64,000 nucleotides of DNA from an uncultured Thalassospiraceae bacterium (GTDB lineage Bacteria; Pseudomonadota; Alphaproteobacteria; Rhodospirillales; 2-02-FULL-58-16), in NCBI GenBank assembly GCA_964632795.1, contig CAZWEZ010000002.1, forward strand, positions 28,702 through 92,701, written 5' to 3'. Positions within the stretch are counted from its first letter, which is position 1. Each line of letters starts with the position of its first letter. The notes below the pieces were generated by a model. The model did not search any database. It worked only from the letters and a program-made list of their open reading frames with translations, and was not told the DNA's origin. Below are positions 6,802-50,536 of the stretch, in pieces. Made by a program: the position numbers and the translations under genes.

Positions 6802-7806
6802 ATGACCTCGACCGCTCCTCCTGCTTCCACCTCCGGGTTCCCCCTCGACGTCCCGGACCTCTCGATCTCGGTGCGCCAGACCTTCGGCATCGACAGCGAC
6901 ATGAAGGTCCCCGCCTTCTCCGAGAGCGAAGAGCACGTGCCGGACATCGACGGCGCCTACCAGTTCGACCACGACACCTCGCTCGCCATCCTGTCGGGCT
7001 TCGCCTACAACCGGCGGGTCATGATCCAGGGCTACCACGGGACCGGCAAGTCGACCCACATCGAGCAGGTCGCCGCAAGGCTCAACTGGCCCTGCATCCG
7101 GATCAACCTGGACAGCCACATCAGCCGCATCGACCTGGTCGGCAAGGACGCCATCGTGTTGCGTGACGGCAAGCAGGTCACCGAGTTCCGCGAGGGCATG
7201 CTGCCGTGGGCGATCCAGCACCCCATCGCCATGGTGTTCGACGAATACGACGCCGGGCGCCCCGACGTGATGTTCGTGATCCAGCGGGTGCTGGAGGTCG
7301 AGGGCAAGCTGACGCTGCTCGACCAGAACCGGGTGATGACCCCGCACCCCTACTTCCGCTTGTTCTCGACCACCAACACCATCGGCCTGGGCGACACCAC
7401 CGGGCTCTACCACGGCACCCAGCAGATCAACCAGGGCCAGATGGACCGCTGGAACGTGGTGGCGACGCTCAACTACCTGCACCACGACGACGAGGTCAAG
7501 ATCGTGCTCTCCAAGGTCCCCTCCTACGACACCAAGAAGGGCCGCGAGACCATCGGCACCATGGTCGAAATGGCCGACCTGACCCGCTCCGGCTTCGTCA
7601 ACGGCGACATCTCGACGGTGATGTCGCCGCGCACGGTCATCAACTGGGCCGAGAACACCGACATCTTCAGGGACAAGGGGTTCGCCTTCCGACTCACCTT
7701 CCTCAACAAGTGCGACGAGCTCGAACGCCCGGTGGTCGCCGAGTACTACCAGCGCTGCTTCGGCGAGGAACTGCCCGAATCGGCGAGCCGGGTGACCTCG
7801 GCCTGA
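6802..7806 (+). CDS. cobS: CobS-type AAA ATPase (aerobic cobaltochelatase subunit family)
   Basis: A 334-aa product with Walker [10 protein letters not shown] and Walker [14 protein letters not shown]. The overall text matches my memory of CobS, and cobT follows directly. Confidence 0.85.
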
Positions 7807-7818
7807 GATGTCCCTGAC

Positions 7819-9645
7819 GTGAACCCGTCGGAAGCCCCCGCGGATCTGATCAAACGGGTCACCTCGGCGACCCTCAAGGCGGTGTCCGGGCGCCGCGAGG
7901 TGAGCGTCGACTTCACCCCCGCCGCCAACGCCGGGCTGAGCGGCCAGGCGGCCCACCTGCCGAGCCCGCCGCCCCAGCCCACCCGGCGCGGGATGCGCCA
8001 ACTGAGGGGGGCCGCCGATTCCCTGGCCCTGCGCCTGCGCTACCACGACGAAGGCCTGCACCGGCGCCGGGCGCCGACGGGAGGCGAGGCCGGGACGGTG
8101 TTCGACGCCGTCGAGCAGGCCCGCGTCGAGGCGTTGGGCTGCCGCCGCATGGCCGGGGTCGCCGACAACCTGAGCGGCCTGCTCGAGGACCGCTGCCAGG
8201 GCTACGCCGGAACCAGCGAGCGGGTCTCCGAACAGCTCCCCGAGGCGCTGTCGCTGGTCGTCCGCGAAAGCCTGACCGGGGCCCCGCCGCCCCAGGCCGC
8301 CGCCGCCATGGTCGAGCTGTGGCGGCCGTGGTTCGACAAGCGCGTCGGCGCCCAGTTGCAGCGCCTCGGCGAACGCCTCGACGACCAGCAGGGGTTCGCC
8401 GAGGTCGCCGCCGAGATGATCCGCATCCTCGACCTGATCGAGGAAGAGGGGCCGCTGGACGAGGATTCGGAGCCCGACCAGCCCGAGGACCAGGACCAGC
8501 CCGAGAGCCGCGAGGCCGACTCCGAGGCCGAGGGGTCGATGGCCGGCGAGGACGCCGAGGGCGATTTCGACGACGGCGCCGAGACGGCGCCCGGCGAGGA
8601 TGACCTGATGATGCCCGGCGACGAGGAGCCGGCCGGCCCCAGGCCCCCCGGGTCGCCGTGGCCCGGCAACGCCCCCCGGGGGCCGGTCTATAACGCCTAC
8701 AGCCCGAACTTCGACGAGGTGGTGGAGGCCGCCTCGCTGTGCAGTGCCGAGGAACTGGACCGCCTCAGGGCGCAACTGGACCAACAGTTGTCCCACCTCC
8801 AAGGCGTGGTGGCGCGGCTCGCCAACCGTCTCCAGCGACGCCTCCTGGCCAAGCAGACCCGATCCTGGGAGTTCGACCAGGAGGAAGGCCTGTTGGACGC
8901 CGGCCGGCTGTCGCGCGTCGTCGTCGATCCGGCCCACCCGCTGTCCTACAAGCTGGAGAAGGAGACCGACTTCCGCGACACCGTGGTCAGCCTGCTGATC
9001 GACAACTCGGGCTCGATGCGCGGCCGCCCCATAACGGTGGCCGCGATGAGCACCGACATCCTGGCCCGGACCCTGGAAAGGTGCGCGGTCAAGGTCGAGA
9101 TCCTGGGCTTCACCACCCGCGCCTGGAAGGGCGGGGCGGCGCGCGAGAAGTGGGTCGCCGACGGCAAGCCCAAGAACCCGGGCCGGCTCAACGATCTGCG
9201 CCACATCGTCTACAAGGGCGCCGACATGCCGTGGCGCCGCACCCGCAAGAACCTGGGGCTGATGCTGCGCGAGGGCCTGCTCAAGGAGAACATCGACGGC
9301 GAGGCCCTGCTGTGGGCCCACAACCGGCTGCTGGCGAGGCCCGAGCAGCGCCGAATCCTGATGGTGATCTCCGACGGCGCGCCGGTCGACGACGCCACCC
9401 TGTCGGCCAACCCCGGCAACTACCTGGAGACCCACCTGCGCCAGGTCATCGCGTGGATCGAGGCCCGCTCGCCGGTCGAGCTGACGGCGATCGGCATCGG
9501 CCACGACGTAACCCGCTACTACCACCGGGCGGTGACCCTCACGGATGCCGAGGAACTGGGCGGCACCATGATGCAGAACCTGATGGACCTGTTCGACGAA
9601 GAAACCCAACCCTCTGGCCACCGCCGCCGGGCGGGCAGGATGTGA
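7819..9645 (+). CDS. cobT: CobT-type VWA protein (cobaltochelatase subunit family)
   Basis: A 608-aa product with a GTG start. It has an acidic low-complexity linker ([22 protein letters not shown]) and a C-terminal VWA/MIDAS region ([11 protein letters not shown]). It is paired with cobS. Confidence 0.85.
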
Positions 9646-9737: not shown

Positions 9738-10020
9738 CCGCGATCTGAAGAAGGTCCTTCTCCAGGACCCCGAAACCCGCGCCGAATACGACGCCCGCGC
9801 TTCGGAGTATGAACTTGCCGGCACCCTCATCGCGGCCCGCAAGACGGCGGGCCTGACCCAGCAACAGGTGGCGGAACGGATGGGCACTAAACAAGCCGCC
9901 GTCGCCCGCATGGAAAGCGGCGCCCAAAAACCAAGCTTCAAAAGCATCGAACGCTACGCCAAAGCCACCGGCCACAAAGCCCACATAACCCTGACCCCGG
10001 CGGGCCACGATAACGCATGA
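9724..10020 (+). CDS. HTH XRE-family antitoxin (HigA-like), orphan
   Basis: A 98-aa product with a GTG start. It has the HTH motif GLTQQQVAERMGTKQAAVARMESG and an N-terminal DPETRAEYDA segment typical of HigA-like antitoxins. Confidence 0.8.
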   Translation: MRSKLRDLKKVLLQDPETRAEYDARASEYELAGTLIAARKTAGLTQQQVAERMGTKQAAVARMESGAQKPSFKSIERYAKATGHKAHITLTPAGHDNA

Positions 10021-10150
10021 GGGGTTTCGGGCGGGGGTCTGTATGGCAAGGAACTTGAGTTCCGATGCGCTGCTCAGGCAACATCTACTCCAGCTACGGC
10101 TATTTGGCCCACAGCAAACATTCCGTTGAAAAAGTGTTTTGATGGATTGC

Positions 10151-11872
10151 CTATTGATGGTTATGATCGATGTCATACTCATCTAGCTCTGCGTGGATTG
10201 ATCCATTACTTTCCAAGAACTGCAAAGGTTCAACCAGCATTCCCCGTCGCTTTGCAGCCTTTTTGAAGAGTCTCCGAATAAAGATCCTCCGAGCTATGTG
10301 TATTTTAGCAGCATCAAAAATCCGGTCTTCAAGAAATGTTACATTTGCATCTAACATTTTTGAAAAAACCGGGTCTCCAGTAACGGCGGAGATAATGTCT
10401 TTGTCCTTTGTCCACTTTCGCCTTACTGCTTCGTAATACGGAAGCCAATTTTCACTGTAGACGCCAGTTTTTTTGAATTCTGATCGCCATCCCCATTTTG
10501 AAAGTGAAACCGATAATAGACCGCGCTCCCGGAGCATACCGAGCATTGCAAAGACAACTGAATTTGGCCTTTTATCGAAAGGAGGCAATTCTATTTCGTC
10601 AAAGCTAATCCGTAAAACAGCTCCTGTGAGCAGGCACCATGTTATTTCGCTATCATGGGCATGTTGTATGTTAGTTCTGATTGTTGTTTTCACCCAAGTT
10701 ACTACCCTCTTTCTAATATCCTGATCACCACATATCGACTGGTGATTAATTAGAAACGCTGCTACATGATGCATGCATGACGGGAAATCCCGCGCTAACC
10801 GGAACATTGCTTCAAGAACCAGCTCATAGTTCTCTTGAAAAATATTGAGCCGCGATAGGCGTCGACATGCCCAACTCGCTGGTGCGCCTGTTTCAGCTTC
10901 TGTACAGAAATGCAAGGTGTGATCAACAAAACGGTATATATCACTCGCTTGCTTAGCTTGATATTTGCTAGAAAGAACGACTGAATCGAAGTCAAGTTTC
11001 CATTTTTCCTTAGCTAACGAACGAGATTTAGAAACAAACGTCTTTTTTTCATTCAGTTGCAGATTGAACTTCCACAAGGCAGCACGTAAGGCACCAAGCG
11101 CCGCTTCCGCCGTATTCACGTCATCAAACCCAATCACGTAATCGTCTAAGAGACGGAACGCGGGGCTACCGCGAATCAAAGATGAAAGATTCTTGTCAGC
11201 TTCTACACCTGCCAAAAGAACTTCCGCGATGATCCGCGATGTATCGGGGCCAACGGGAATTCCGAAAGTTTCTCTCGACTGACATAGCTGAAGAGCCTTA
11301 TCAAGATCATTGGACCAATGATTGTTTAACTTGCTTCGATTTTTTTCAATCCATTCTTTAACATTTTCCTTCCCAAGAACCGCCCACGGTATCGAGTGCG
11401 TATAAATCGTGTAAAAGAATCGAGAAATATCTGCTTGCAACACGTATGGACATTTCGAGTAAAGACTTGCAGCTAGTACGTCTTTCTTACGAAAATCTAA
11501 CCCTTCAAACGCCTTTTGTTTTTTTGGATCCTCGCTTGTGCGATAAAGCGATTTACCTCCTTCCCTTATGATTTTTTTTATTTTGGAACGATTTTTTGTT
11601 ATCAGAAGTGATAAATTCAATTGTGCGAGGGGATGTACCAAGGCAAGATTTCGACGTCCACTAACAGTTCGAGGGAATGTAAATGTTTCGTAATTTGTCG
11701 ATCCCTTAATTAGGTCTTTCTGTAATTGTTTCAAAAAATTATATTCGGTATCGCAAAAAGCAGAAAAATATTTTGCTGTTACTACTGGCGGGATTTCCAT
11801 CGGAAGGTAGGCCGTACGAATGAGCGCGGCCAAGAATTCGCGCTGTCTAGATGGTCGTGATGGTGATTTCAT
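10151..11872 (-). CDS. Stand-alone reverse transcriptase of the UG/Abi (defence-associated) type
   Basis: The track ORF is 10151..11884 (TTG start); ATG at 11872 is the more likely start. RT motifs in track numbering are SGRRNLALVHP (74-84), QADISRFFYTIYTHSIPWA (150-168, motif A Asp152), GIPVGPDTSRIIAEVLL (208-224, motif B) and FRLLDDYVIGF (243-253, Asp247-Asp248 at nt 11141-11146). Residues about 290-577 are helical-looking with no motif I recognise. The gene is strongly AT-rich compared with its flanks. Confidence 0.8.
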   Translation of the reverse strand: MKSPSRPSRQREFLAALIRTAYLPMEIPPVVTAKYFSAFCDTEYNFLKQLQKDLIKGSTNYETFTFPRTVSGRRNLALVHPLAQLNLSLLITKNRSKIKKIIREGGKSLYRTSEDPKKQKAFEGLDFRKKDVLAASLYSKCPYVLQADISRFFYTIYTHSIPWAVLGKENVKEWIEKNRSKLNNHWSNDLDKALQLCQSRETFGIPVGPDTSRIIAEVLLAGVEADKNLSSLIRGSPAFRLLDDYVIGFDDVNTAEAALGALRAALWKFNLQLNEKKTFVSKSRSLAKEKWKLDFDSVVLSSKYQAKQASDIYRFVDHTLHFCTEAETGAPASWACRRLSRLNIFQENYELVLEAMFRLARDFPSCMHHVAAFLINHQSICGDQDIRKRVVTWVKTTIRTNIQHAHDSEITWCLLTGAVLRISFDEIELPPFDKRPNSVVFAMLGMLRERGLLSVSLSKWGWRSEFKKTGVYSENWLPYYEAVRRKWTKDKDIISAVTGDPVFSKMLDANVTFLEDRIFDAAKIHIARRIFIRRLFKKAAKRRGMLVEPLQFLESNGSIHAELDEYDIDHNHQ

Positions 11873-11921
11873 TGGGTTGTCCAATCGTTAAAGAATCGCG
11901 TGGATAAAAAATTGCACCTGT

Positions 11922-12294: not shown

Positions 12295-12999
12295 TCACCG
12301 CCAGTACCCGGGACGGGGCGGTTCTTCGCCTTCCTGGGCGGCTTCCGGGCTGATCAGGGTGACTTGGTTGTCGGTGGGCTCGATCCTGAACAGGTCGCGG
12401 CCTAGTTGGCGGGACGATTCGATGGGGTTGGAGGGGTCGTCGCGGACTTCGCCGCGTTTGTCGCCGATGCCGGTCACCATGCCGACCAGCGAATGGTCGA
12501 GGTAGCGGCACAGCTCGGCCATCTGCTGGACGATCCCGAGGCGCACCGAGAAGGCGTAATCCTCGGCGCTCAGCAGCAGCGCCGCCCGCTTGCCGGTCAG
12601 CCTTCGGGCATTCTCCGCCGCCCCGGGATGGTTGCCCGAAACGTAACAGTAGTAGCGGTCGATGAAGCTTTTGAGGGGGCCCGAAATCCCGTACCACCAG
12701 ATCGGCGTCGCGTAGACGATGGCATCGGCCGGCAGCACCTTGTCGAGGAACAACCCGGCGTAGCCGTCGTCGATCGTACACCGGTCCTCGGCGTCGCGGC
12801 ACTTGGTGCAGTCGCGCAGGTGGCCGTCCATGTGGTCGGCCAGGTCGACCAGTTCGGCCGCCGCCCCGGCTTCCGCCGCCCCCTCGATCAGGGCCTCGGC
12901 GAGGAGCCGCGAGTTGCCGTCGCGGCGCGGGCTGGAGCTTACCGCCAGCACCCGGGGCGGGTCGTTGCGGGGTTCGTATTTACGGTTGTCCTCGCTCAT
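12295..12999 (-). CDS. NADPH-dependent FMN reductase / flavodoxin-like flavoprotein
   Basis: A 234-aa product. VLAVSSSPRRDGNSRLLAEA and AIVYATPIWWYGISGPLKSFIDR are typical of the flavodoxin_2 / FMN_red fold. Confidence 0.8.
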   Translation of the reverse strand: MSEDNRKYEPRNDPPRVLAVSSSPRRDGNSRLLAEALIEGAAEAGAAAELVDLADHMDGHLRDCTKCRDAEDRCTIDDGYAGLFLDKVLPADAIVYATPIWWYGISGPLKSFIDRYYCYVSGNHPGAAENARRLTGKRAALLLSAEDYAFSVRLGIVQQMAELCRYLDHSLVGMVTGIGDKRGEVRDDPSNPIESSRQLGRDLFRIEPTDNQVTLISPEAAQEGEEPPRPGYWR

Positions 13000-13039
13000 G
13001 GTGTTTTCCTTTCAAAATCTCAAAAGAAACCGGCGCGTT

Positions 13040-13420
13040 CATCATACCAGCCAGCGCATGTGGTTACACATGCGCTGGCTGGCAAGCGCGACCGCGCGTC
13101 GCCGCTTATGCGGCGAGCCAAGGGCCATGTCGGGTTAGTGTTGCTCCGCTTCGCTCCGCGAGCCCCTCAGTCGCCGGGCGGGCCGGTGGCCCTTGGCTAC
13201 GGGCCTACGGCCCGACGCGCTGGCGCGCTTTTCGACATGGCATGATGCCATGTCGAATCGATAAACAATCGACGAATGTGCAGGAGGCCAGCCTGGCCCT
13301 ATCAAGCCTGTCTCCAAACCGGCATGGCCCCCGGCCATGCCGGCAAGCGCGACCGCGCGTCGCGACTTATGTCGCGAGCCAAGGGCCACCGGCCCGCCCG
13401 GCGCCTGAGGGGCAGCGTAA
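13040..13420. repeat. Cluster of REP-like nested hairpin repeats
   Basis: Two direct copies of GGCAAGCGCGACCGCGCGTCGC-N-CTTATG-N-GCGAGCCAAGGGCCA lie at 13081-13127 and 13343-13389. Each is preceded by a different perfect hairpin. An inverted partial copy (13158-13198 versus 13378-13415) and a further hairpin at 13241-13257 are also present. Confidence 0.6.
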
Positions 13421-13428
13421 CGAGGCGT

Positions 13429-14961
13429 CTACGCCGCAGGGCGCATGGCGCTTTCCGGGAGCAGGATGTTGAACTGCTTGCGGACTTCGGCGTCGATCTC
13501 AGGAGGGATCACGGTTGGCCAGTGCTCGGTCAGGATCTTGCGGGCGTAGTCGCGCGCCGCCTCGCGGACGTCCTTGGCCCCGGCCGCCGTCCACACCTCG
13601 CGGTTGTTGCGGTCCATGACCTCGGGATAGAGGTATTCGGTGTGCATCTTCGACAGCGTCTGGGGATGGCCCAGGTAGTGGCCGTCGCCCCTGCACACCT
13701 GGTCGATGACGTCGACGCACAGCGATTCCTCGGAAACCTCGACGCCGCGCACCATGCGCATGATCTGGCCGTTGATGTCGTTGTCGATCACGTACTGCTC
13801 GTAGGCCACCGCCAGCATGCTTTCGAGGAAGCCGGCCGAGTGGTGGATGTAGTTGGTGCCGGCCAGCGCCGCCGCCAGGCCGGTGATCGCCTTCTCAGAG
13901 GCCGCCTGGGCGTCGGGGACCTTGGAATCGGTGATCCCGGTGGAGTTGTAGACCGGCAGGTTCAGGCGCTGGCCGATCTGGGCGCACGCCGCGTTCATCA
14001 CCGCCGCCTCGGCCGAACCGCCGGTGTAGGAGCCGGTGCGCAGGTCGGCCTGGGCCGGCACGCAGCCCAGGATCACCGGATGGCCGGGGTTGAGCAGGTT
14101 GACGTAGACGATGCCGGAAAGCTCCTCGGCGAAGATCTGGACCAGGGTCCCGGCCAGGGTCACCGGCGAGGTGGCGCCGGACTGGGGGGCCGAGGACAGT
14201 ACCACCGGCAGGCCCGAGGCGATGATGGCGTCCAGCACCTCGAGGGTCTCGAAGGCGTAGCGCAGCGGGCTGACCGTCCAGCAGTTGACATAGGAGATGG
14301 TCGGCCGGGCGTCGAGGGACTCCTTGCCCCCGGCCATGATCTCCGCCATCCGGCGCTGTTCGGGCACGTTCTCGGGCATGTAGGCGTTGGCCATCACGTG
14401 CTTGGGGGTCGCCGCCATGCAGGCGTAGTACTGGTTGATGTCCAGGTCCGCCGACGGGATGTCGCGGCTGACCACCGGGCGCATGTAGAAGTGGATGTTG
14501 TCGAGCCTGTCGACCAGGCGGCCGATGTTGTAGTTGTCGAGCAGCACGGTCTCGCGGTAGTTGCCCTCGAGATCGAGGATGTTGACCGCCGAGCCGCCGG
14601 TCCCCATGAACACCTTGGTGCCGCCGATCATCAGGTCGTGGTCCGGGGTGCGGCCGGCCAGCAGCACCTGGTTGGCCGCCTTGGCGACCCCCTCCTCGAC
14701 GGTCTTGTGGTCGATGTAGACGCGGTTGGCGTCGGCGTCGATGCGGCATCCCGCCTTGCGGAAGACCTCCCGGCACGGGCTGTCCATGACTTCGATGCCG
14801 GTCCTCTCCAGCACCGTCTTGGCGGCGTCGATGATCTTCTCGACGTCGCCGTCGGACAGCGGCTTGTACTGGCCGCCGATCAGGCCTCCGGGGGCGACGG
14901 GGGCGGCTTTGGGTTTGCTGGCTTCGCCGCTGCCGCGGCGGCGTCGTTGGGCACGAGGCAT
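13429..14961 (-). CDS. MttB-superfamily (trimethylamine methyltransferase-like, non-Pyl) protein 1
   Basis: A 510-aa product with family text such as GIEVMDSPCREVFRKAGCRID, SSAPQSGATSPVTLAGTL and YIHHSAGFLES. The frame is uninterrupted, with no in-frame amber codon. Confidence 0.85.
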   Translation of the reverse strand: MPRAQRRRRGSGEASKPKAAPVAPGGLIGGQYKPLSDGDVEKIIDAAKTVLERTGIEVMDSPCREVFRKAGCRIDADANRVYIDHKTVEEGVAKAANQVLLAGRTPDHDLMIGGTKVFMGTGGSAVNILDLEGNYRETVLLDNYNIGRLVDRLDNIHFYMRPVVSRDIPSADLDINQYYACMAATPKHVMANAYMPENVPEQRRMAEIMAGGKESLDARPTISYVNCWTVSPLRYAFETLEVLDAIIASGLPVVLSSAPQSGATSPVTLAGTLVQIFAEELSGIVYVNLLNPGHPVILGCVPAQADLRTGSYTGGSAEAAVMNAACAQIGQRLNLPVYNSTGITDSKVPDAQAASEKAITGLAAALAGTNYIHHSAGFLESMLAVAYEQYVIDNDINGQIMRMVRGVEVSEESLCVDVIDQVCRGDGHYLGHPQTLSKMHTEYLYPEVMDRNNREVWTAAGAKDVREAARDYARKILTEHWPTVIPPEIDAEVRKQFNILLPESAMRPAA

Positions 14962-15075
14962 GTCAACACCGGTGTCTGTTTCAAGGGGGGAATATCACTA
15001 CATGGATTATGGGGATTTTTTTTGCCAAGGGCGACACTGAATTCTCCCTGGGCGCAGTCTCCCCCGGCCCTCCCC

Positions 15076-15534
15076 TCACGAGGTATCGCCTTCCAGAGCC
15101 CCCCCCGAGGTGCCCGGGAAGCGGCGCAGGTCGTCGCCAATGGCGTAGTAGTCGGGAACGTCAACGGCGTAGATGTGGCCGATGGTGCGAAGGCCGCTGG
15201 GCTGGTCGATGGAGCCGGCGGCGATGCTGATCGAGCCGCTGCCCTCCTTCCTCCAGAACAGGCTGGCCCCGCACTCGGCACAGAACCCGCGCCGTCCCGC
15301 CTCCGAGGAGGCGTACCACCTGAGCCCCCGTTCCTCGATAAAGGTCACGGCGTCGATGGCGGCGGCGGCGTAGGCGGCGAAGTTGCCGTGGGTGCGTTGG
15401 CACTGGGAGCAGTGGCAGTTGATCACGTTGCGCAGCGGCCCGCCCTGCACCCGGTAGCGCACCGCGCCGCACAGGCAGCCTCCGGTGGCGCGAACCTCCT
15501 GAGGGTCATGAGTCATGTTCGTTCTCTCATCCAT
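15076..15534 (-). CDS. GFA family (glutathione-dependent formaldehyde-activating / CENP-V-like) protein
   Basis: Has the Cys-rich motifs GGCLCGAVRY, CHCSQCQ and FCAECGASLF. ATG at 15516 is an alternative start. The 15534 start overlaps the upstream regulator's stop by 8 nt. Confidence 0.8.
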   Translation of the reverse strand: MDERTNMTHDPQEVRATGGCLCGAVRYRVQGGPLRNVINCHCSQCQRTHGNFAAYAAAAIDAVTFIEERGLRWYASSEAGRRGFCAECGASLFWRKEGSGSISIAAGSIDQPSGLRTIGHIYAVDVPDYYAIGDDLRRFPGTSGGALEGDTS

Positions 15535-16381
15535 CCCCGATGTCGTCGCCGAGGGTGCGCAGGAACCCGGCGGCCTCGTTGGCCTGGACCACGGCGGCGC
15601 GGATCAGGCCGTCGAAATGGCGGGTCAACACCCGGATGTGCTCGGCGGTGTTGAACACGAAGTACATCTGGCCGACGTAGAGCGCCGCGCGCAACGGCCC
15701 GAAGATCGTATAGGGCACCGAATAGTGGCTCAGTTCGTCGTAAAAGAACAGGCGCAGCGAGGGATACAGTTCCTCGCCGAGGGCGATCATCCGTTCCACC
15801 TGCTCCAGCCGCGCCGCCGGCGGCAGGCCCCGCCACACCCCCTCGCCGCGGGCGAAGGAGGCCATCCCCTGGACCGTCATGCAGATCTCGACGTCGGTTT
15901 CAGGCTGCCGGATGTAGGCCAGCCGGTGGCGGCCGTCGCCGATCGCCTGGTCCGCCGTGCGGGCGACGAAACCCCGGAACTCGTGGCGGGTCACCCGGTC
16001 GGTCTTGAACGGGTCGGGCAGGGTCGTCGGCACGTGCCGGATCTTGTAGCCGGCGGCCTCCTGGTACCAGCGGTCAAGCCCCTCGTCGTCGATGGTCCCG
16101 GCGCTGGGCGTGAACTGCATCGATTCGAGAAGGATGTCGGCGCTCAGCCGGTCCTCCCGGCTCAGCCCCAGCAGCCAGTCGAGACTGACTCCCAGCGCGG
16201 TGGCGATGGCCGCCACCGTGTCCGAACGCGGCAGGCGGCCGGTGTCCCCGGACAACAGCTGGGACAGGGTCGAGCGGTCGATGCCGGTCCGCCTCGCCAG
16301 GGTCGAGCGGTTGAGCCCCGAACGGGCCATCGCCTCTCCCAGCCGGCTCCGGAACCGGCGCGCCATATCGCGGCGATCCAT
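15527..16381 (-). CDS. XRE-family HTH transcriptional regulator with a large C-terminal domain
   Basis: The N-terminal HTH reads LNRSTLARRTGIDRSTLSQLLSG, followed by about 200 aa of unassigned domain. Confidence 0.8.
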   Translation of the reverse strand: MDRRDMARRFRSRLGEAMARSGLNRSTLARRTGIDRSTLSQLLSGDTGRLPRSDTVAAIATALGVSLDWLLGLSREDRLSADILLESMQFTPSAGTIDDEGLDRWYQEAAGYKIRHVPTTLPDPFKTDRVTRHEFRGFVARTADQAIGDGRHRLAYIRQPETDVEICMTVQGMASFARGEGVWRGLPPAARLEQVERMIALGEELYPSLRLFFYDELSHYSVPYTIFGPLRAALYVGQMYFVFNTAEHIRVLTRHFDGLIRAAVVQANEAAGFLRTLGDDIGDG

Positions 16382-16435
16382 GGCCGCCTCCCGCTGTTCA
16401 TGGGACGCTCTGCCTGTTGTTTATTATCTACATTA

Positions 16436-16449
16436 AGTGACTTTTGTCA
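16436..16449. promoter_or_regulatory. Small palindrome GTGAC-TTTT-GTCAC in a divergent promoter region
   Basis: It lies in the AT-richer 160-bp gap between the XRE regulator gene and the Mo-enzyme gene. This is a candidate operator only. Confidence 0.3.
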
Positions 16450-16541
16450 CCACATTTGATCAATAGTGCGCATTCCCACGTTGCCCAAACAAGGCCGCCG
16501 CGCCACCCTGTCGAAATCTGGGCGAGCCGGAAATCGATACC

Positions 16542-18680
16542 GTGAACGTGATCAAGAACAAGGCGCCCCCCGGGGCGCCGCCGGGCGAGGTCGGGCGGCC
16601 GGTGAGGCGCACCGACGCCCCGGCCAAGGCGGCCGGCGCCACCCGCTATGCCGGCGACTTCGCGATGCCCGGCATGCTGCACGCCCGCGTCCTGCGCTCG
16701 CCGGTCGCCGCCGGCCGGCTGCGGGGCATCGACGCCGGCGCCGCCCGCGCCCTGCCCGGCGTCGCCTGCGTGCTGAGCGCCAAGGACATCCCCGGCGCCG
16801 GCGCCGTCTGCGGGCGGCCGGTGCTGGCCGCCGGCTCCATCCGTCATTACGGCGAGCCGATCGCCCTGATCGCCGCCCGGAGCCCGGCCATCGCCGAATT
16901 GGCGATGGCCATGATGGTCCTCGACATCGAGGAAACCGCCGCCGTCTTCGACCCCTCGGCGGCGCTGGCCCCGGGCGCCCCCGGGGTTCACGGCGAGGGC
17001 AACGTCTCGGCCCGCCACCGCATCCGCAAGGGCGACCTCGAGGCCGGCTTCGCCGCCGCCGAGATGGTGGTCGAGCGGACCTACCGGGTCGGTCGCATGG
17101 AGCACGCCTTCCTCGAACCCGAGGCGGGGATCGCCTGGCTCGACGAGGACGGCGTCCTCACCATCCGCGTCGGCACCCAGATGACCGACCACTACCGGGC
17201 GGTGGCCGAGGTGCTGGCGCTGCCCCCGGACAAGGTCCGGGTGCTGGGCATGTTCACCGGCGGCGCCTTCGGCGGCAAGGAGAGCGTCACCATCGAGGCC
17301 TTCCTCGGCCTGCTGGCCCAGGCGACCGGACGGCCGGTCCGCCTGGCCTGCGCCCGCGAGGAGTCGTTCCTCACCCACGGCCAGCGCCACGCCATGTCGA
17401 TGACCTACAGGAGCGGAATCACCCGGGACGGCAGGATCACCGCCCATGAGGTCGACATCGTCGCCGACGGCGGCGCCCACCCGGCGGTCAACCGGTTCGC
17501 GCTGTTCCATGCCGGCAACGCGGCGGCCGGCCCCTACCGGATCGACGCCATCCACGTCGACGCCGTGGCGGCGGCGACCAACACCCCGCCGGCCGAGGCC
17601 CTGAGAAGCTTCGGCGCCGGCCTGGCCTGCGTCGCCTACGAGGCCCAGATGGACGAGATCGCCAAGGCCCTGGGGATGAGTCCGCTGGAGGTGCGGCGCC
17701 GCAACTTCCTGGCACGCAACCAAACCACGGCCACCGGCCAGGCCGTGGAGAGCGCGGTATGGACCGGGCGCTGCATGGATCGGGCATGGCGGGCGTTGGG
17801 CGACAGGACCCCGGACGCGCCTCCCCTCAGGATCGGCCGCGGAATCGCCTGCTACCAGCAGTTCTACGGCCGCATCGCCACCAACCCGGAGTCCGCCGAG
17901 GCCGCGGTGGCGATCGAGGCCGACGGTTCGGTGACCGTGCGCACGTGCGTCCCCGACATCGGCGGCGGCCAGGTCTCGGCGCTGTGCCAGATCGCCGCCG
18001 AGGTGCTCGGCGTGGCCCTCGGGCGGGTGCGCATCGAACACACCGATTCAGCCGCCCTGCCGGCGGCCGGGGCGACCGGGGTCAGCGCCCAGCTCTACAT
18101 GTCGGGCAACGCCGTCAAGATGGCGGCGGAGCGCCTGCTTGCGCGGGCCGATCCCGAGGCCCCGGGGTCGGCGAGCGCCGTCTACCGGGCCCCCGTCGGC
18201 GCCATCGACCCCGACACCGGCCAGGGCTTCGCCTATCCCGACTTCACCTACGGCGCCCACGCCGTCGAGTTGGCGGTGGACGTCGAGACCGGCGAGGTGG
18301 CGGTGCTCAAGAGCGTCGGTTGCCACGACGTCGGGCGGGCCGTCAACCCGGCCGCCGTCGCCGGCCAGATCGAGGGCGGCGCGGTGATGGGGCTGGGCTG
18401 CGCGCTGAGCGAGGAGTTCAAGCTCCAGCGGGGACGGCCGGCCACGCCGTCGCTGGGCGAATACCTGATCCCCACCGCCATCGACGTCCCGGGGACCAAC
18501 CAGGCGATCATCCTCGAATCGGCCAGCGGGCTGGGACCCTTCGGGGCCAAGGGAATCGCCGAGGCCGCCTTCACCCCGGTCGCCCCGGCGATCGCCAACG
18601 CCGTCGCCGAGGCCATCGGGGTTCGCATCTTCGAGCTGCCGATCACCCCCGAGAAGATCGTCAAGGCGCTGCGGGGCTAG
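16542..18680 (+). CDS. Xanthine dehydrogenase / aldehyde oxidase family molybdopterin-binding subunit
   Basis: A 712-aa product with a GTG start. It opens with GRPVRRTDAPAKAAGATRYAGD and HARVLRSPVAAGRL (a/b hammerhead). Later GGGQ and GxGE-type motifs (DIGGGQVSAL, FGAKGIAEAA) are typical of the family. Confidence 0.85.
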   Translation: MNVIKNKAPPGAPPGEVGRPVRRTDAPAKAAGATRYAGDFAMPGMLHARVLRSPVAAGRLRGIDAGAARALPGVACVLSAKDIPGAGAVCGRPVLAAGSIRHYGEPIALIAARSPAIAELAMAMMVLDIEETAAVFDPSAALAPGAPGVHGEGNVSARHRIRKGDLEAGFAAAEMVVERTYRVGRMEHAFLEPEAGIAWLDEDGVLTIRVGTQMTDHYRAVAEVLALPPDKVRVLGMFTGGAFGGKESVTIEAFLGLLAQATGRPVRLACAREESFLTHGQRHAMSMTYRSGITRDGRITAHEVDIVADGGAHPAVNRFALFHAGNAAAGPYRIDAIHVDAVAAATNTPPAEALRSFGAGLACVAYEAQMDEIAKALGMSPLEVRRRNFLARNQTTATGQAVESAVWTGRCMDRAWRALGDRTPDAPPLRIGRGIACYQQFYGRIATNPESAEAAVAIEADGSVTVRTCVPDIGGGQVSALCQIAAEVLGVALGRVRIEHTDSAALPAAGATGVSAQLYMSGNAVKMAAERLLARADPEAPGSASAVYRAPVGAIDPDTGQGFAYPDFTYGAHAVELAVDVETGEVAVLKSVGCHDVGRAVNPAAVAGQIEGGAVMGLGCALSEEFKLQRGRPATPSLGEYLIPTAIDVPGTNQAIILESASGLGPFGAKGIAEAAFTPVAPAIANAVAEAIGVRIFELPITPEKIVKALRG

Positions 18681-18709
18681 TGCATTTCAAGATTGATCGG
18701 ACCCGCTGG

Positions 18710-18803
18710 CATCCTTCGACACGCGAGCTACGCTCGCTGCTCAGGATGAGGATTTTAATGACACCTCATCCTGAGCAGCCGCGAAGCGGCGTGTCGAAGG
18801 ATG
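18710..18803. repeat. REP-like long hairpin
   Basis: CATCCTTCGACACGC...GCTGCTCAGGATGAGG pairs with CCTCATCCTGAGCAGC...GCGTGTCGAAGGATG around a 12-nt loop. It lies between two convergent genes. Confidence 0.6.
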
Positions 18804-18835
18804 GATCGAATGAAGCGAATCAATCCGGACCTGGG

Positions 18836-20356
18836 TTAGGCGCCGTGGATTTCCCGGCGGCGGCGCTCGATGAAGGCCCGGAGTTCCTCGTCGACGGCGG
18901 GATCGAGCGCCGGCGCCCGGTAGTCCTCGAGCAGCCGCTTGACCAGGAGGTTGGCGTTCTCCGCCGTGCTCCGGGCGCCGTCGTCGCGCCAGCTTTCGAA
19001 GTCCCGCCAGTCCCACAGCATGGGCCGGTGGAAGGCGTTCCGGTAGCGCTCCAGCGTGTGGGGCGTCGCCAGGTGGTTGCCGCCCGGTCCCTGCCGGACC
19101 ATGGAGTCCATGGCCAGGGTCGCCTCGTCGACGGTGATCGGCTCGAGAAAATCGGCGATCATCCCCAGCGCCTCGGCGTCGATCACCACCTTCTCGAAGC
19201 TGGACGACAGGCTGCTCTCGATCCACCCCGCGGCGTGCAGGATCATGTTGGCGTGGCCCATCACCGCCCCCCACAGGGCGAACATGGATTCGTAACCGGC
19301 CTGGGCGTCGGGAGCGTTGGCGGTGGTGCAGCCCGCCGACCGGCAGGGCAGCCCGTAGCGCCGCGCCAACTGGCCGGCGGCCAGCGTCGCGCGCAGGGAT
19401 TCCGGGGTGCCGAAGGTCGGCGCCCCGCTCTTCATGTCGGCCGCCGCGTGGAAGGCGCCGTAGGCGCACGGGGCGCCCGGACGCAGGATCTGGATGTAGG
19501 CGACGACCGCCAGGATCTCGGCGTTCTGCTGGGCCAGGGCGCCGGCCAGGGTCACCGGCGCGCTCACCCCGGAGAGGGTGAACGGGGTCACGATCACCGC
19601 CTGGCCGCGGGTCGTCATCTCCTTGAGTCCCTGGAGCATGGTGCCGTCGATGCGCAACGGCGAGGTGGTGTTGACCACCGTGAACAGGCCGGGCCGCTCC
19701 ATCAGGTCGTCGCCGCTCCAGCCGGTGGCGATGGTCAGCATGGCGATGGCGTCGGCGATCCGCTCCCGCCCCAGCGCATAGGGGTGCCAGACCTTGTCGG
19801 TCAGCGCGATGTAGCCGTAGTGGCAGTCGAGGTGCCGGGATTCGGGGGCCACGTCCTGGGGCTCCACCGGATAGCCGCCGATCATGTGGATCACGTTCAG
19901 GCTCTGGTGCAGCTTGAGGAAGCGGTTGTAATCGGCCAGCGTCCCCGGCCGCCGGCCGCCGTCGAGGTCGGTGCAGTTGGGGGCGCTGGCCGCCGAGCAG
20001 AAGTTGACCCGGGTGCCGCCCAGCGTCACCGTATGGTCCGGGTTGCGGGCGTGCAAGGTGAACTCGGCGGGCGCCCGGGCCACCGCTTCCAGGACCATGT
20101 CCCTGTCGAAGCGCACCCGGGGGCCGTCGGCCTCGACCTCGGCGCCCGCCGCCTCGAGGGTCCGCCGTGCCTCAGCGTCGAGGAAGTCGATGCCGACCGT
20201 CTCCAGCAGGTCCAGCGAGGCGTCGTGGATCGCCTCGAGCTGGTCGGCGTCCAGCACCTCGATCGGCGGGTACGGGTTGCGCAGGCTCCGCCACCGAGGC
20301 TGCGCGACTCCTTCGGTCCCGGGCTTCGCCCGCTTACGGCCTGTTCGCGCCATCAA
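18836..20356 (-). CDS. MttB-superfamily (trimethylamine methyltransferase-like, non-Pyl) protein 2
   Basis: A 506-aa paralog of 13429..14961 with the same family blocks (VGIDFLDAEARRTLEAAGAEV, PFTLSGVSAPVTLAGAL, ILHAAGWIESS). There is no in-frame amber codon. Confidence 0.85.
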   Translation of the reverse strand: MMARTGRKRAKPGTEGVAQPRWRSLRNPYPPIEVLDADQLEAIHDASLDLLETVGIDFLDAEARRTLEAAGAEVEADGPRVRFDRDMVLEAVARAPAEFTLHARNPDHTVTLGGTRVNFCSAASAPNCTDLDGGRRPGTLADYNRFLKLHQSLNVIHMIGGYPVEPQDVAPESRHLDCHYGYIALTDKVWHPYALGRERIADAIAMLTIATGWSGDDLMERPGLFTVVNTTSPLRIDGTMLQGLKEMTTRGQAVIVTPFTLSGVSAPVTLAGALAQQNAEILAVVAYIQILRPGAPCAYGAFHAAADMKSGAPTFGTPESLRATLAAGQLARRYGLPCRSAGCTTANAPDAQAGYESMFALWGAVMGHANMILHAAGWIESSLSSSFEKVVIDAEALGMIADFLEPITVDEATLAMDSMVRQGPGGNHLATPHTLERYRNAFHRPMLWDWRDFESWRDDGARSTAENANLLVKRLLEDYRAPALDPAVDEELRAFIERRRREIHGA

Positions 20357-20424
20357 CGCCTCCTTGTCCCTTCGATTTCCGACGACAACAGTTTATTCTT
20401 AACATCCTTGGTGGAGAAGAAACG

Positions 20425-21819
20425 ATGAAAACGGAGCAGCCGCTCAAACAACGCCCGCCGTTGACCGACTACCCCCACGTCACCGGGATTCCGACCTCGG
20501 CGAGGTACGTGGTGGTCGGCGCCGGGGTCCACGGGCTGAGCACCGCCTGGCACCTGGCGATGGAGCTGGAGGCGCGCGGCACCGGGAGCGGCGCCGACAT
20601 CGTGCTGATCGACAAGTCCGGCCCCGGCCACGGCGCCACCGGCATCGCCTGCGGCTGCGTGCGCAACTTCTACATGACCGAGCCCCTGCACGCTATCCTG
20701 CGCCATTCGGTGGACGTGTGGATGAGCGACCCCATCAACTTCGGCTTCCAGCAGGTCGGCTACATCTCGTGCGGCGAGGACAACCAGGCCGAGGAATACG
20801 CCAAGGTCCACGAGAGCCAGAACGCCGTCGGCTACCACTCCGACCTCTATTACGGCAAGGACGCCCACCGTCTGCTCAAGGGCCTGTGGCCCGACTTCAA
20901 GACCGACCGGGTCGGGGTGGTGCTGCACGAAAAGGTCAGCGGCTACGCCGGCACCCTGCAGATGGTCGACGGCTTCGCCCGCAAGTGCAAGCGCCACGAC
21001 GTGCAATGCCTGTGGGGGGTCGAGGTGATCGGCTACGACATCACCTCGGGCCGGGTCGCCAAGGTCCACACCGACCTCGGCGACATCGCCTGCGAGGCGG
21101 TGGTGATCGGCGTCGGGGCGTGGACGCCCGCCCACTGGCGGATGCTCGGCCAGCCGATGACGCTGGATGTGCGCTACCCCGACGGCGAGACGCTGGCCGA
21201 CCAGGACATGTGGACCTTCTGGCGCCTGCTCGAGGGCGACGTGCTGCTCGACGAACCCTACCGCGACGCCCGCGACCTGGACCCGCCGGTGCTCCATGTC
21301 GAGCTGATGAACACCCCGGTCCACGACCCCGTAAGCGGCCGCCAGCTGGCCGACCATACCTACGTCTACTGGAAGAACGCCTCGGAGCGCCTGCGCGACC
21401 GCTACGGCGTCCAGGGCGGCACCATCCCGATCAAGATCGGTCCCGAGGCGGCGGTCGAGCCCTACGGCCACGCCAACCGCCAGTACTGGGCCGAGGCCGG
21501 GTTCGCCGACTACTACACCGCCGCCCTGGGCCAGTTGATGGGCCGCTTCGAGGGCTGCCGGGGACGCTTCAACAAACGCCCCAACGGCGGCATCGGCGCC
21601 TTCACGCCCGACAACGTGCCGGTTTTCGACTGGGTGCTGCCCAACGCCTACCTGATCGCCGACAGCAACCACGGCTTCAAGATGACCGGGGTGGGCAAAC
21701 TGGTCGCCCAACTCCTGGCCACCGGCCGAACCCCTCAAGAGCTCAAACCCTTCGCGCTGGACCGCTTCGCCAAGGGCAACACCTTCGGCGAGCGGAATTC
21801 ACGGTGCCCGTGGGTTTAG
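20425..21819 (+). CDS. FAD-dependent oxidoreductase (DAO family, sarcosine/dimethylglycine oxidase-like)
   Basis: A 464-aa product from ATG 20425 inside track ORF 20167..21819. It has the dinucleotide-binding motif YVVVGAGVHGLSTAWHLA. It is divergent from MttB paralog 2. Confidence 0.8.
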   Translation: MKTEQPLKQRPPLTDYPHVTGIPTSARYVVVGAGVHGLSTAWHLAMELEARGTGSGADIVLIDKSGPGHGATGIACGCVRNFYMTEPLHAILRHSVDVWMSDPINFGFQQVGYISCGEDNQAEEYAKVHESQNAVGYHSDLYYGKDAHRLLKGLWPDFKTDRVGVVLHEKVSGYAGTLQMVDGFARKCKRHDVQCLWGVEVIGYDITSGRVAKVHTDLGDIACEAVVIGVGAWTPAHWRMLGQPMTLDVRYPDGETLADQDMWTFWRLLEGDVLLDEPYRDARDLDPPVLHVELMNTPVHDPVSGRQLADHTYVYWKNASERLRDRYGVQGGTIPIKIGPEAAVEPYGHANRQYWAEAGFADYYTAALGQLMGRFEGCRGRFNKRPNGGIGAFTPDNVPVFDWVLPNAYLIADSNHGFKMTGVGKLVAQLLATGRTPQELKPFALDRFAKGNTFGERNSRCPWV

Positions 21820-22279
21820 GGGGGCGTAAGGGACAGGCTCATCTATTTTCGGAGTATGCGCGCCTCATCGAGCGATCCCGGCAACCAACGTGATTTTGGC
21901 AAGCGCGGCGAGGCAAACTCCTGGGCTTGGAATGTCGGCTTGTCGTTCCAAAGCGGCGGTCAAATGGCATCGGTTCTGAATACGGCTGTTAGCCACGAGG
22001 AGACATTGGCTGGTCAGACGACTGTGGGGGGAATCCCATTTCTGTAGCGGTGCCGTAATGGTATGATCGGTATGGATTTGAAGGCTATCTGGGAAATGTC
22101 GGCTAATATCTTTGGGAAGATTGGGTTCAATGCCCGTCGGAAGCGTCGGGTAGGACTGTGGCTTGTTTTCGCCACAGACCGCAAACCCGCCCATATCGGG
22201 GAAAAGATTGCCATTGAGTGACCGCGCCCAAGCAGTAGGCGGCGCGCCGCCCGACCCGCAAGGCGAAGGAGCGCATCGC

Positions 22280-23101
22280 ATGAAGGAGGACGTCACCTAC
22301 ATCGAGCGACCCAACCGTCCGCTGCACATCTACGCGATCCTGTTTCTTGCGTTCCTGTATATTCCGGTGCTGTTCCTGCCGTTGTTTTCCTTCAACGACT
22401 CCATCTACGTCGCCTTTCCGATCAAGAGCTTCACCACCAAGTGGTACATATACATGTTCAACAACGAGCCGATACTGGCTGCGTTGATGAACAGCCTCAA
22501 GGTGGGCGCGGCGACCTCGGTGTTCGCCACCATCCTGGGAGTCTTCGCCGCCAAGGCGGTGACCCGCTACCGGATGCCGGGCAAGAAGCCGGTCGTCTTC
22601 GTGATCATGCTGCCGCTGGTGATCCCCGGCATCATCCTTGGTGTCGCGTTGCTGATCCTGATGAGCCGGCTCGGGGTCCCGCTGTCGCTGTACACGGTCA
22701 CCATGGGCCATGTCCTGATCAGCGTTCCGTTCGCCATAGCGACCCTGATCACGCGCTTCGAGGGCTTCGACAAATCGATGGAGGAGGCGTCCGCCGACCT
22801 CGGCGAGAATGCGTGGTGGACGTTCTGGCGGGTGACTTTTCCGATGGTGTTCCCGGGCGTCCTGGCGAGCCTGCTGCTCACCTTCACGATCTCGTTCGAC
22901 GAGTTCATCATGGCCTTCTTCCTGTCCGGCACCGAGCCCACGCTGCCGATCGCCATCTGGACTCAGTTGCGGTTCCCGGATGAACTGCCGGGTGTGCTGG
23001 CGCTCGGCTCGTGCATCCTGGTGGTTTCCTTCATCGTGGTGTTCATCTCGCAGTGGCTCCGGGGCCGCGGAGTCCCGACCAAGACCTTAAGCGGAGTGTA
23101 A
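22280..23101 (+). CDS. ABC transporter permease (PotC/spermidine-putrescine-type), orphan
   Basis: A 273-aa product from ATG 22280. It has six hydrophobic segments and an EAA-like loop (EEASADLGENAWWTFWRVTFP). No ATPase, second permease or binding-protein gene is adjacent. Confidence 0.8.
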   Translation: MKEDVTYIERPNRPLHIYAILFLAFLYIPVLFLPLFSFNDSIYVAFPIKSFTTKWYIYMFNNEPILAALMNSLKVGAATSVFATILGVFAAKAVTRYRMPGKKPVVFVIMLPLVIPGIILGVALLILMSRLGVPLSLYTVTMGHVLISVPFAIATLITRFEGFDKSMEEASADLGENAWWTFWRVTFPMVFPGVLASLLLTFTISFDEFIMAFFLSGTEPTLPIAIWTQLRFPDELPGVLALGSCILVVSFIVVFISQWLRGRGVPTKTLSGV

Positions 23102-47593: not shown

Positions 47594-48344
47594 TCACCTC
47601 GATTTAACGCCTCGGCCGGGGACACGGACCCGTTCAAGCAGATCGAGAAATTCTTGGACGTCAGCTTGGGCAAGATCATTGAACGGGTATGGACCGCCGA
47701 CCCATTTCTCGTGCACTTCGTTCATCAGAAATTTCCATCCCCTCATGTGAGACTTCCGGAACAATGGAAAAAAGCCAGTTCTCAAATTGTTTGGCCTCGA
47801 TCCGACCGGAATCAACTCTCTTGTGGCTCTCGCTTGCTGGCCAGTAGATCAGAGAGAGTTCCCAATCCCATCCAAACTCTTCAGGGAGTTCATTCCATAG
47901 GCTGGACTTCACGACAAATCCTAGAGGGCAATAAACGGAAAGTTCATCGTTGCGGAACGCCTTTAATAAATGCCCTTCTGTGTTTTCGAAACGCTCCCAT
48001 CTTCCGTAGTCGTCGGTCTCGTATTTTCGCACCTCGCCAATCTTGTTCAGCCAGGAAAAAACATCTCCCTGCCTGTTTTTTAGGTTAGCAATCTCCGAGT
48101 TAATCCATGAAATTTCATCTTTCCCCAGGACTTTTCTTAATTCATATTGCTTAGCATTAATCTCAAGATTGATAGCTTCAAGCTCTCGCTCAAGTGGAGC
48201 TCTCGCCTCCTTGATCGGTCTAGGATCAACAGCCTTACGGCCCCAAATTTCATAACCATTCTATTCTGAACCATACAACCGCATTCCAAGCGCATTAAAG
48301 GCATCCGACAGAAAGAAATCTCGGTGAAAACTTGATGAATTCAT
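47594..48344 (-). pseudogene. Disrupted partner gene of the HEPN-like gene (in-frame TAG plus homopolymer frameshift)
   Basis: The ATG at 48344 overlaps the upstream stop (ATGA). Codon 28 is TAG (48261-48263), yet the same frame continues as protein-like text into track ORF 47676..48032. At the A6 run (47768-47773) the plausible reading shifts into track ORF 47594..47815. I recognise no family. Confidence 0.55.
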
Positions 48345-49510: not shown

Positions 49511-49792
49511 CCCTTGCCTCCTACTAACCGTATAAGGTTTTCTATAGTTTTTCACTGTATCCTAGAAGAATGCAATTGGTTGATTTGTGATGGCATTATA
49601 CCTCGGCCACTTCTAGCTTCTCAATTCTGCATTACTATCTAGCAGAACCAGATAGCAGCGTGTCATATTCACCACAGGCTACGCTTTTTTTCTCCTCCTG
49701 GTGCTTCCACAGCGCTTCCACGAATGATTATTGTGTTGAGCATGAGGCACAGAAAAACCCCATAACCAATTGAGGTAATGGGGTTAATTTTG

Positions 49793-50536
<744 letters not shown>

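Follow-up and report, generated by a model that had tools for sequence, protein, structure and literature searches.

The question raised by the DNA analysed here is how two methyltransferases of the MttB superfamily may function when neither a corrinoid protein nor a second methyltransferase is encoded beside them. The DNA is a stretch of 64,000 nucleotides (the window; C2:28702-92701) on the 122-kb contig C2 of an uncultured marine Thalassospiraceae bacterium, whose metagenome-assembled genome (MAG; G000) comprises 3.78 Mb in 184 contigs. The two genes, here termed MttB1 and MttB2, span 6.9 kb and share 32% identity. We consider it rather probable that both are working, substrate-specific first methyltransferase (MT1) components served by a corrinoid/folate hub encoded elsewhere, and that the partners would be missing from the window because one shared hub on another contig serves the 17 MttB paralogs of this genome. 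With them, a known enzyme family in a known architecture gains two uncharacterised members.

Assignment of the two predicted proteins to the MttB superfamily is supported by their matches to PF06253 (gathering cut-off 25 bits), which reach 410 bits over profile positions 28-489 of 500 for MttB1 and 627 bits over positions 4-499 for MttB2, and by homology to solved TIM-barrel structures, both proteins aligning with 2QNE, 9YCE, 7XCL and 4YYC at E-values of 1e-47 to 1e-108 over about 470 residues. MttB1 scores 251 bits to MtgB (2QNE), 211 bits to MttB (7XCL) and 195 bits to 4YYC, while the best match of MttB2 is 4YYC (364 bits), followed by MtgB (343 bits) and MttB (163 bits). No in-frame stop is present in either gene, and hence no UAG or pyrrolysine codon; the scores to TIGR02369, the model for pyrrolysine-dependent trimethylamine (TMA) methyltransferases, are 403 bits for MttB1 and 305 bits for MttB2, both under the equivalog cut-off of 525 bits, so neither falls in that group. 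A preliminary description of this DNA had reported two diverged non-pyrrolysine MttB paralogs within 7 kb, next to genes for a GFA/CENP-V domain protein (GFA), an XRE-family regulator (XRE), a subunit of a molybdenum hydroxylase (Mo subunit) and a DAO-family flavin adenine dinucleotide (FAD) oxidoreductase (DAO); our profile and domain searches agree with this, including the intactness of both MttB genes. For MttB2 a TTG at 20356 gives a protein of 506 aa and the ATG at 20353 one of 505 aa.

Whole-genome profile scans found no B12-binding (PF02310), pterin-binding (PF00809) or URO-D (PF01208) gene within the window, in line with the absence of corrinoid and second methyltransferase (MT2) genes noted in the same description, and no corrinoid or MT2 gene within 56 kb of the two MttB genes. 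The closest B12-binding gene is at C2:105770, 13 kb beyond the window end. It encodes a 208-aa corrinoid protein (C2:105506-106132) beside a radical SAM/SPASM protein and a pyridoxal phosphate-dependent enzyme, and is the nearest such gene to both MttBs.

That the partners might be encoded elsewhere, one of two possibilities offered at the outset, is well supported by the genome search. A small contig of 9.7 kb, C124, is filled entirely (C124:1-9749) by a cluster which encodes, in one direction and in this order, an MtgC-like protein, a DUF1638 protein, a methylenetetrahydrofolate reductase (MTHFR; a MetF paralog), a fusion of URO-D and B12-binding domains (CmuA-like), an MtgD/MtgA-like protein, RACo and a GbdR-like regulator. 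The MtgC-like corrinoid protein (C124:394-1104, 236 aa) has B12-binding_2 and B12-binding domains with DxHxxG (DIHDIGKN), SxL and GG motifs that are invariant in 33 relatives, and is 75-80% identical to homologs across Rhodospirillales and Dongiaceae. The MtgD-like protein is the only pterin-binding protein of the genome that is not DHPS-like, and the RACo is the only one found; these single-copy hub genes are unlinked to the window. Fused MetH was not found in the genome scans, every S-methyl_trans (homocysteine S-methyltransferase) domain being encoded by a gene of its own. Of the 17 PF06253 loci, only those on C96, C119 and C30 (five in all, three of them on C30) share a contig with a corrinoid gene, the other 12 being without; an orphan MttB gene is therefore the normal case here, and MttB1 and MttB2 are no more orphan than most.

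The arrangement is like the MtgBCD(E) system of Ruegeria pomeroyi DSS-3 and Phaeobacter inhibens, in which scattered MttB-family genes are unlinked to a shared MtgC and MtgD (Mausz et al. 2025, PMC12478193). Knockouts in R. pomeroyi showed that the unlinked MtgC and MtgD serve both glycine-betaine demethylation by the MttB-family MtgB and methionine synthesis (PMC12478193), and this hub layout, published in 2025 for aerobic Alphaproteobacteria, settles the puzzle of partnerless MttB genes. The likeness extends to RamA/RACo, DUF1638 and a MetF paralog, to stand-alone homocysteine methyltransferases with no fused MetH found, and to the handling of later methyl groups by flavin demethylases. Unlike the genomes of that study, for which up to seven pfam06253 paralogs were noted (PMC12478193), the present genome has 17 such loci; and unlike the R. 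pomeroyi MtgBs, the window paralogs are without the glycine-betaine contact residue set and their coupling to the hub is deduced from the genome. The MtgB of Desulfitobacterium hafniense (2QNE/9YCE; PMC13080624) belongs to the same superfamily, aligns over nearly the full length with MttB1 and MttB2 (251 and 343 bits) and has no pyrrolysine, but in contrast to the window genes it is encoded with its own MtgC and MtgA. The genome analysed here is an extreme case, with 17 substrate modules sharing one folate methyltransferase and one activase, and implies that marine-sediment Alphaproteobacteria channel many methylated compounds through cobalamin.

In the mechanism that we favour, MttB1 and MttB2 would each demethylate an N-methylated, probably quaternary, compound and transfer the methyl group to Co(I) of a small corrinoid protein whose gene lies elsewhere, the best candidate being the C124 MtgC-like protein. 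From there the methyl group would reach tetrahydrofolate through the single MtgD-like pterin-binding enzyme, the resulting methyl-tetrahydrofolate would be oxidised by the MetF2-like MTHFR, and RACo and DUF1638 would re-reduce inactive Co(II). Both MttBs would thus have to dock to the C124 hub. A later N-methyl group may be removed from the MttB2 product by the DAO flavoenzyme, as would be done by the DMGDH and DgcAB enzymes encoded beside the MttB paralog on contig C90, and the XRE protein, perhaps with GFA, may regulate the unit.

The hub genes also follow the MttB genes in a sample of 151 genomes from the same order as the host, where RACo is present in 24 of the 26 MttB-positive genomes and in 10 of the 125 MttB-negative ones; related genomes are not independent, and the counts are descriptive. 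The distance between RACo and the top-scoring, C90-type MttB is 2-25 kb in many of these genomes.

With 17 paralogs in the genome, one could also regard the two genes as redundant or decaying copies of a recent family expansion that have no distinct role. One copy on C30 carries in-frame TGA and TAA, and only one of the ten other genomes of the host's family has any MttB gene. However, both window open reading frames are intact, with a G+C content at third codon positions (GC3) of 0.94, their 32% identity marks them as old paralogs, and orthologs of 60-72% identity, common in genomes and MAGs of Rhodospirillales, Kiloniellales and Dongiaceae, keep conserved neighbours in other genera and even other classes. 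We judge decay to be exceedingly improbable. The interrupted C30 copy is the middle one of three MttB-family genes in tandem (C30:22450-26881), with a URO-D and B12-binding fusion 4-6 kb away, and is probably a pseudogene.

Several observations weigh against service of MttB1 and MttB2 by the C124 hub, or against the roles proposed for them. The tie to this hub is one that we infer from the genome only. There are five to seven small corrinoid proteins in the genome (further ones are encoded at C2:105.5 kb and on C9, C96/C119 and C109), whose pairing with individual MttBs is not assignable, and in a MAG of 184 contigs the true distances between the loci are not readable. MttB2 homologs of about 50% identity occur in other families of the order without a neighbouring DAO, often keeping a gene for a PhnD-like binding protein. 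In the MttB2 clade a conserved Lys is replaced by Asn and one residue is deleted near the pyrrolysine-equivalent loop; this Lys is kept in MtgB, 4YYC and MttB, and the chemistry of MttB2 could differ. Finally, the characterised MtcB, MtpB, MtyB and MthB and the R. pomeroyi MtgBs (SPO2108, SPO2134) were left out of the tree used for placement. A predicted complex of MttB2 (41-row alignment) with the C124 MtgC (33 rows) gave ipSAE values of 0.21 and 0.18, which are under the mark, in a prediction run without controls.

The substrates were approached from the active-site residues. In D. hafniense MtgB, glycine betaine is contacted by Y97 and F356 (cation-pi) and by R312 and H348 (carboxylate); the mutations Y97A and F356L raise Km several hundred-fold, R312L is inactive, and R312 is kept among characterised relatives of MtgB (PMC13080624). 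The corresponding residues, read from alignments made with HMMER (to 2QNE and 7XCL) and with MAFFT (all paralogs), are G/Y/H/M in the MttB1 clade and A or S/R/H/S or G in the MttB2 clade, MttB2 itself having A/R/H/S. All of 41 MttB2 relatives have R338 and H373, and at least 90% of them have N346. Placement of the two paralogs used three PDB anchors, these residue signatures and a quick maximum-likelihood tree (IQ-TREE) of the genome's own paralogs and metagenomic hits, in which some branches are long. The MttB2 clade is sister to the C90 MtgB-type paralog (SH-aLRT 99) and the MttB1 clade to a six-member expansion within this genome. The earlier suggestion that the paralogs stand outside clades of known specificity holds as far as residues and PDB anchors go.

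These data bear on whether either gene, or both, might encode a further glycine-betaine methyltransferase (an MtgB isozyme), a role most plausible for MttB2. The sister position of MttB2 to the C90/4YYC clade, its scores of 343-364 bits to MtgB and 4YYC and its retained carboxylate-binding Arg/His pair fit such a role, and two pfam06253 MtgB paralogs of R. pomeroyi are induced together on glycine betaine (PMC12478193). However, both cation-pi residues are replaced in the MttB2 clade, at the very positions where substitution impairs MtgB so strongly, and MttB1 in addition lacks the Arg whose loss inactivates MtgB. The C90 paralog is also a better candidate: it scores 725 bits to the putative TMA methyltransferase 4YYC of Sinorhizobium meliloti and 446 bits to MtgB, retains Y97, R312 and H348 (not F356), and adjoins a DMGDH-type enzyme and DgcA/DgcB. 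It is the likely glycine-betaine enzyme, and no corrinoid gene is adjacent to it either. The alphaproteobacterial 4YYC is the best PDB match of MttB2, but its true ortholog in this genome is the C90 paralog, and a glycine-betaine/dimethylglycine catabolism context was not found in the window. The sequences thus make glycine betaine an unlikely substrate of MttB1 or MttB2, and an isozyme role for either gene appears unlikely to us. The retained Arg/His pair suggests instead that MttB2 probably acts on some other carboxylate-bearing betaine, and the Tyr in place of Arg, as in pyrrolysine-containing MttB, suggests for MttB1 a probable substrate that makes no such carboxylate contact; both proposals are drawn from four alignment columns.

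MttB1 bears similarities with the pyrrolysine-containing MttB of Methanosarcina barkeri (7XCL; PMC9842639), having Gly123 at the column of MtgB Y97 and MttB Gly110, Tyr338 at that of Arg312, where the M. barkeri enzyme has Tyr329, and a common ...DSKVPDAQA... segment. Unlike that enzyme it has no UAG, the codon aligned with Pyl334 being AUC (Ile343), and Tyr364 is replaced by His, the column of Y364/H348 being occupied by His373-His374. The residues of the MttB1 clade are kept in 14 orthologs and in 65 Desulfobacterota cousins. The PYLIS_3 model of Rfam matches MttB1 at 13836-13935 (minus strand) with 53.8 bits (gathering score 38 bits), the first codon of the match being Ile343. The model fires at this equivalent codon because the DSKVPDAQA segment is similar to M. 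barkeri MttB; the score is mainly primary sequence and several pairs are non-canonical, and a working PYLIS element was rejected. Five non-pyrrolysine MttB genes of the genome pass the gathering score, namely MttB1 and those at C59:3368-3467, C8:43166-43265, C73:9614-9713 and C8:50999-51090, and it appears that the model captures conserved coding sequence rather than RNA structure and can give false positives on non-pyrrolysine homologs.

Within the order, few other genomes (3 of 150) have an ortholog of MttB1 (62-68% identity); such orthologs are also found in Kiloniella, Curvivirga, Ostreiculturibacter and in MAGs of Halopseudomonas and Chloroflexota. Since G000 and G108 are the only genomes of the order sample with orthologs of both MttB1 and MttB2, the two genes are not obligately coupled. 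The closest cousins of MttB1 outside its own clade are non-pyrrolysine proteins of Desulfobacterota with about 40% identity and Met at the pyrrolysine site. Within 10 kb of the 65 cousin loci an MtgD-like gene is present in 61 and an MtgC-like gene in 51, and these anaerobic cousins have the classical operon of three genes. An MtgC (corrinoid protein) and DUF1638 pair lies 10 kb from the MttB1 ortholog of Pelagibius litoralis. In Kiloniella and the other genomes named with it above, the usual cluster of MttB1 orthologs has the arrangement GbdR-like, DAO paralog, substrate-binding protein, MmgE/PrpD, CN_hydrolase, GbdR-like, MttB1. This cluster of about 10 kb is common to Alpha- and Gammaproteobacteria, as seen in Kiloniella majae (L134) and a Halopseudomonas aestusnigri MAG (L055, 955-12881), sometimes with a GbcA-like Rieske oxygenase, and is likely a mobile catabolic module for an N-methylated compound.

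The set DAO, MttB2 ... XRE, GFA, (PhnD-like), MttB1 recurs in G108 (GCA_024278615.1, same family as the host), in Rhodospirillaceae bacterium SYSU D60014 and on a JGI contig, with DAO orthologs adjoining MttB2-type genes in the first two. DAO relatives of 60-71% identity were found at 80 metagenome loci, of which 44 are informative in having 2.5 kb or more of sequence upstream; at a distance of no more than 6 kb from the DAO there was an MttB-family gene at 18 of these 44, a PhnD-like binding protein at 15, an FA_desaturase-like gene at 10 and an XRE regulator at 8, and at least one of the four at 30. On one metagenome contig (L176) the DAO ortholog lies directly beside MtgD, MTHFR and MtgC. 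Taken as sequence evidence, the contexts point to catabolism of N-methylated compounds by a corrinoid step followed by flavin steps, a pattern known for glycine betaine (PMC12478193, PMC13381886).

The second possibility offered in the preliminary description was that the paralogs act without a corrinoid, in a purely oxidative demethylation cluster with the DAO, the GFA protein and the Mo enzyme. It draws on the lack of corrinoid and MT2 genes within 56 kb, on the flavin oxidase and GFA-domain gene being conserved neighbours and on the unusual Lys-to-Asn change in MttB2. To our knowledge, however, no MttB-family member acts without a corrinoid, and the hub genes are present in the genome and track the MttB genes across the order. 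We regard the Mo subunit as a bystander: it is present at the locus as described, but it is not a conserved member of the cluster, relatives carrying an FA_desaturase-family gene at its position. None of its NCBIfam matches reaches an equivalog cut-off, and neither [2Fe-2S] nor FAD partner subunits were found on C2, the seven Fer2_2 genes of the genome all lying on other contigs. Nor is the GFA protein an evident ortholog of Paracoccus Gfa; it matches PF04828 with 76 bits, has no NCBIfam name, and its sole PDB match at E<0.01 is 8AJQ, a 'CENP-V/GFA domain-containing protein', so that calling it formaldehyde-related over-reads a bare domain. The oxidative role found no support and is in our judgement very unlikely; the DAO is more likely to act after an MttB step, as DMGDH and DgcAB may do for the C90 paralog.

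The DAO (106 bits to PF01266) is a distant relative of sarcosine oxidase beta and N-methyl amino acid oxidases, the soxB and N-methyltryptophan oxidase models scoring far under their cut-offs and the best PDB match being 1Y56_B (60 bits). Its start is better placed at the ATG at 20425, behind a GGAG motif, which gives 464 aa, than at 20167 (550-aa frame), and the gene diverges from MttB2 across a 71-bp spacer. The DAO beside MttB1 orthologs in Kiloniella and Halopseudomonas was considered as an ortholog of the window DAO and rejected by reciprocal search, its ortholog in the genome being C60:9246-10583 (732 bits vs 346 bits for the window DAO); by these scores the window DAO is a paralogous subfamily.

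The XRE protein has an N-terminal HTH_3 domain and a C-terminal part of about 200 aa, for which domain searches found no family (DUF5753 being a weak lead only), and its orthologs in relatives score 300-400 bits. The GFA gene overlaps the stop of the XRE gene by 8 nt, and the pair is kept in G108, SYSU D60014 and metagenome loci. A consensus scan gave a predicted promoter upstream of XRE (GTGACA-16-GATAAT, 10/12 consensus match) and no terminator-like site between XRE and MttB1, and XRE, GFA and MttB1 may be driven as one unit by this sigma-70-like promoter.

One might speculate that the window holds most of an unrecognised route by which a marine or soil trimethylammonium compound would be demethylated in three steps, in which MttB2, with its carboxylate-binding Arg/His pair, would remove the first methyl group, MttB1 would remove one from a substrate free of the carboxylate contact and the DAO the last one, and we give this rather little chance. 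If true, the MttB1 clade, with Tyr for Arg312, Ile or Met at the pyrrolysine site and, in Kiloniella, Halopseudomonas and Chloroflexota, a position under GbdR-like regulators, would represent a way for aerobes to handle a methylamine-type substrate without pyrrolysine. With their residue signatures and conserved neighbours, the two uncharacterised MttB clades are tractable targets for substrate discovery, and there are culturable hosts, for MttB1 Kiloniella spp. and Pelagibius litoralis, and for the MttB2-DAO pair Rhodospirillaceae bacterium SYSU D60014.

The features of the locus are collected in Table 1. The window has a G+C content of 65-72%, and true genes are recognisable by a GC3 above 0.85. 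XRE, the Mo subunit and MttB2 are joined in this order on contigs of a second study as well, and the arrangement is therefore not an assembly artefact.

Table 1. Features at and around the two MttB genes (positions within the window).
Feature	Position	Strand	Remarks
cobS + cobT, aerobic cobaltochelatase subunits	6802-9645	+	CobS_N + AAA_5; CobT + CobT_C; 4 kb from MttB1
FMN-reductase-like gene	12295-12999	-	flanks MttB1
MttB1, non-pyrrolysine MttB-superfamily methyltransferase, 510 aa	13429-14961	-	PF06253
GFA/CENP-V domain protein, 152 aa	15076-15534	-	PF04828
XRE-family helix-turn-helix (HTH) regulator, 284 aa	15527-16381	-	Pfam HTH_3, HTH_31, HTH_26
Sigma-70-like promoter (predicted), upstream of XRE	16423-16450	-	consensus scan
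Mo-hydroxylase (xanthine dehydrogenase family) large subunit, 712 aa	16542-18680	+	Ald_Xan_dh_C, MoCoBD_1, MoCoBD_2
MttB2, non-pyrrolysine MttB-superfamily methyltransferase, 505 aa (ATG)	18836-20353	-	PF06253
DAO-family FAD oxidoreductase, 464 aa	20425-21819	+	PF01266
PotC-like ABC permease	22163-23101	+	downstream of DAO gene

In each of the four metagenome runs contig depth is raised 5- to 15-fold at 12769-13702 and 18373-18839, which marks these intergenic stretches as multi-copy repeat elements. Runs X2-X4 lack the 163 nt at 18671-18833, which lie between the Mo subunit and MttB2, and have CCAA there instead. An island of 43% G+C (about 9967-11834), located between cobT and the FMN reductase gene, carries a Drt4-like antiviral reverse transcriptase, whose reading frame (10151-11884, minus strand) scores 190 bits, below the cut-off of 450 bits. 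The island is covered in run X1 and has a depth of about zero in three runs of another study that carry the flanks, and it looks like a strain-variable defence island. A second stretch of low G+C (48%), at 48001-50000, adjoins a tRNA gene (49793-49866, minus strand) and may be an integrated element.

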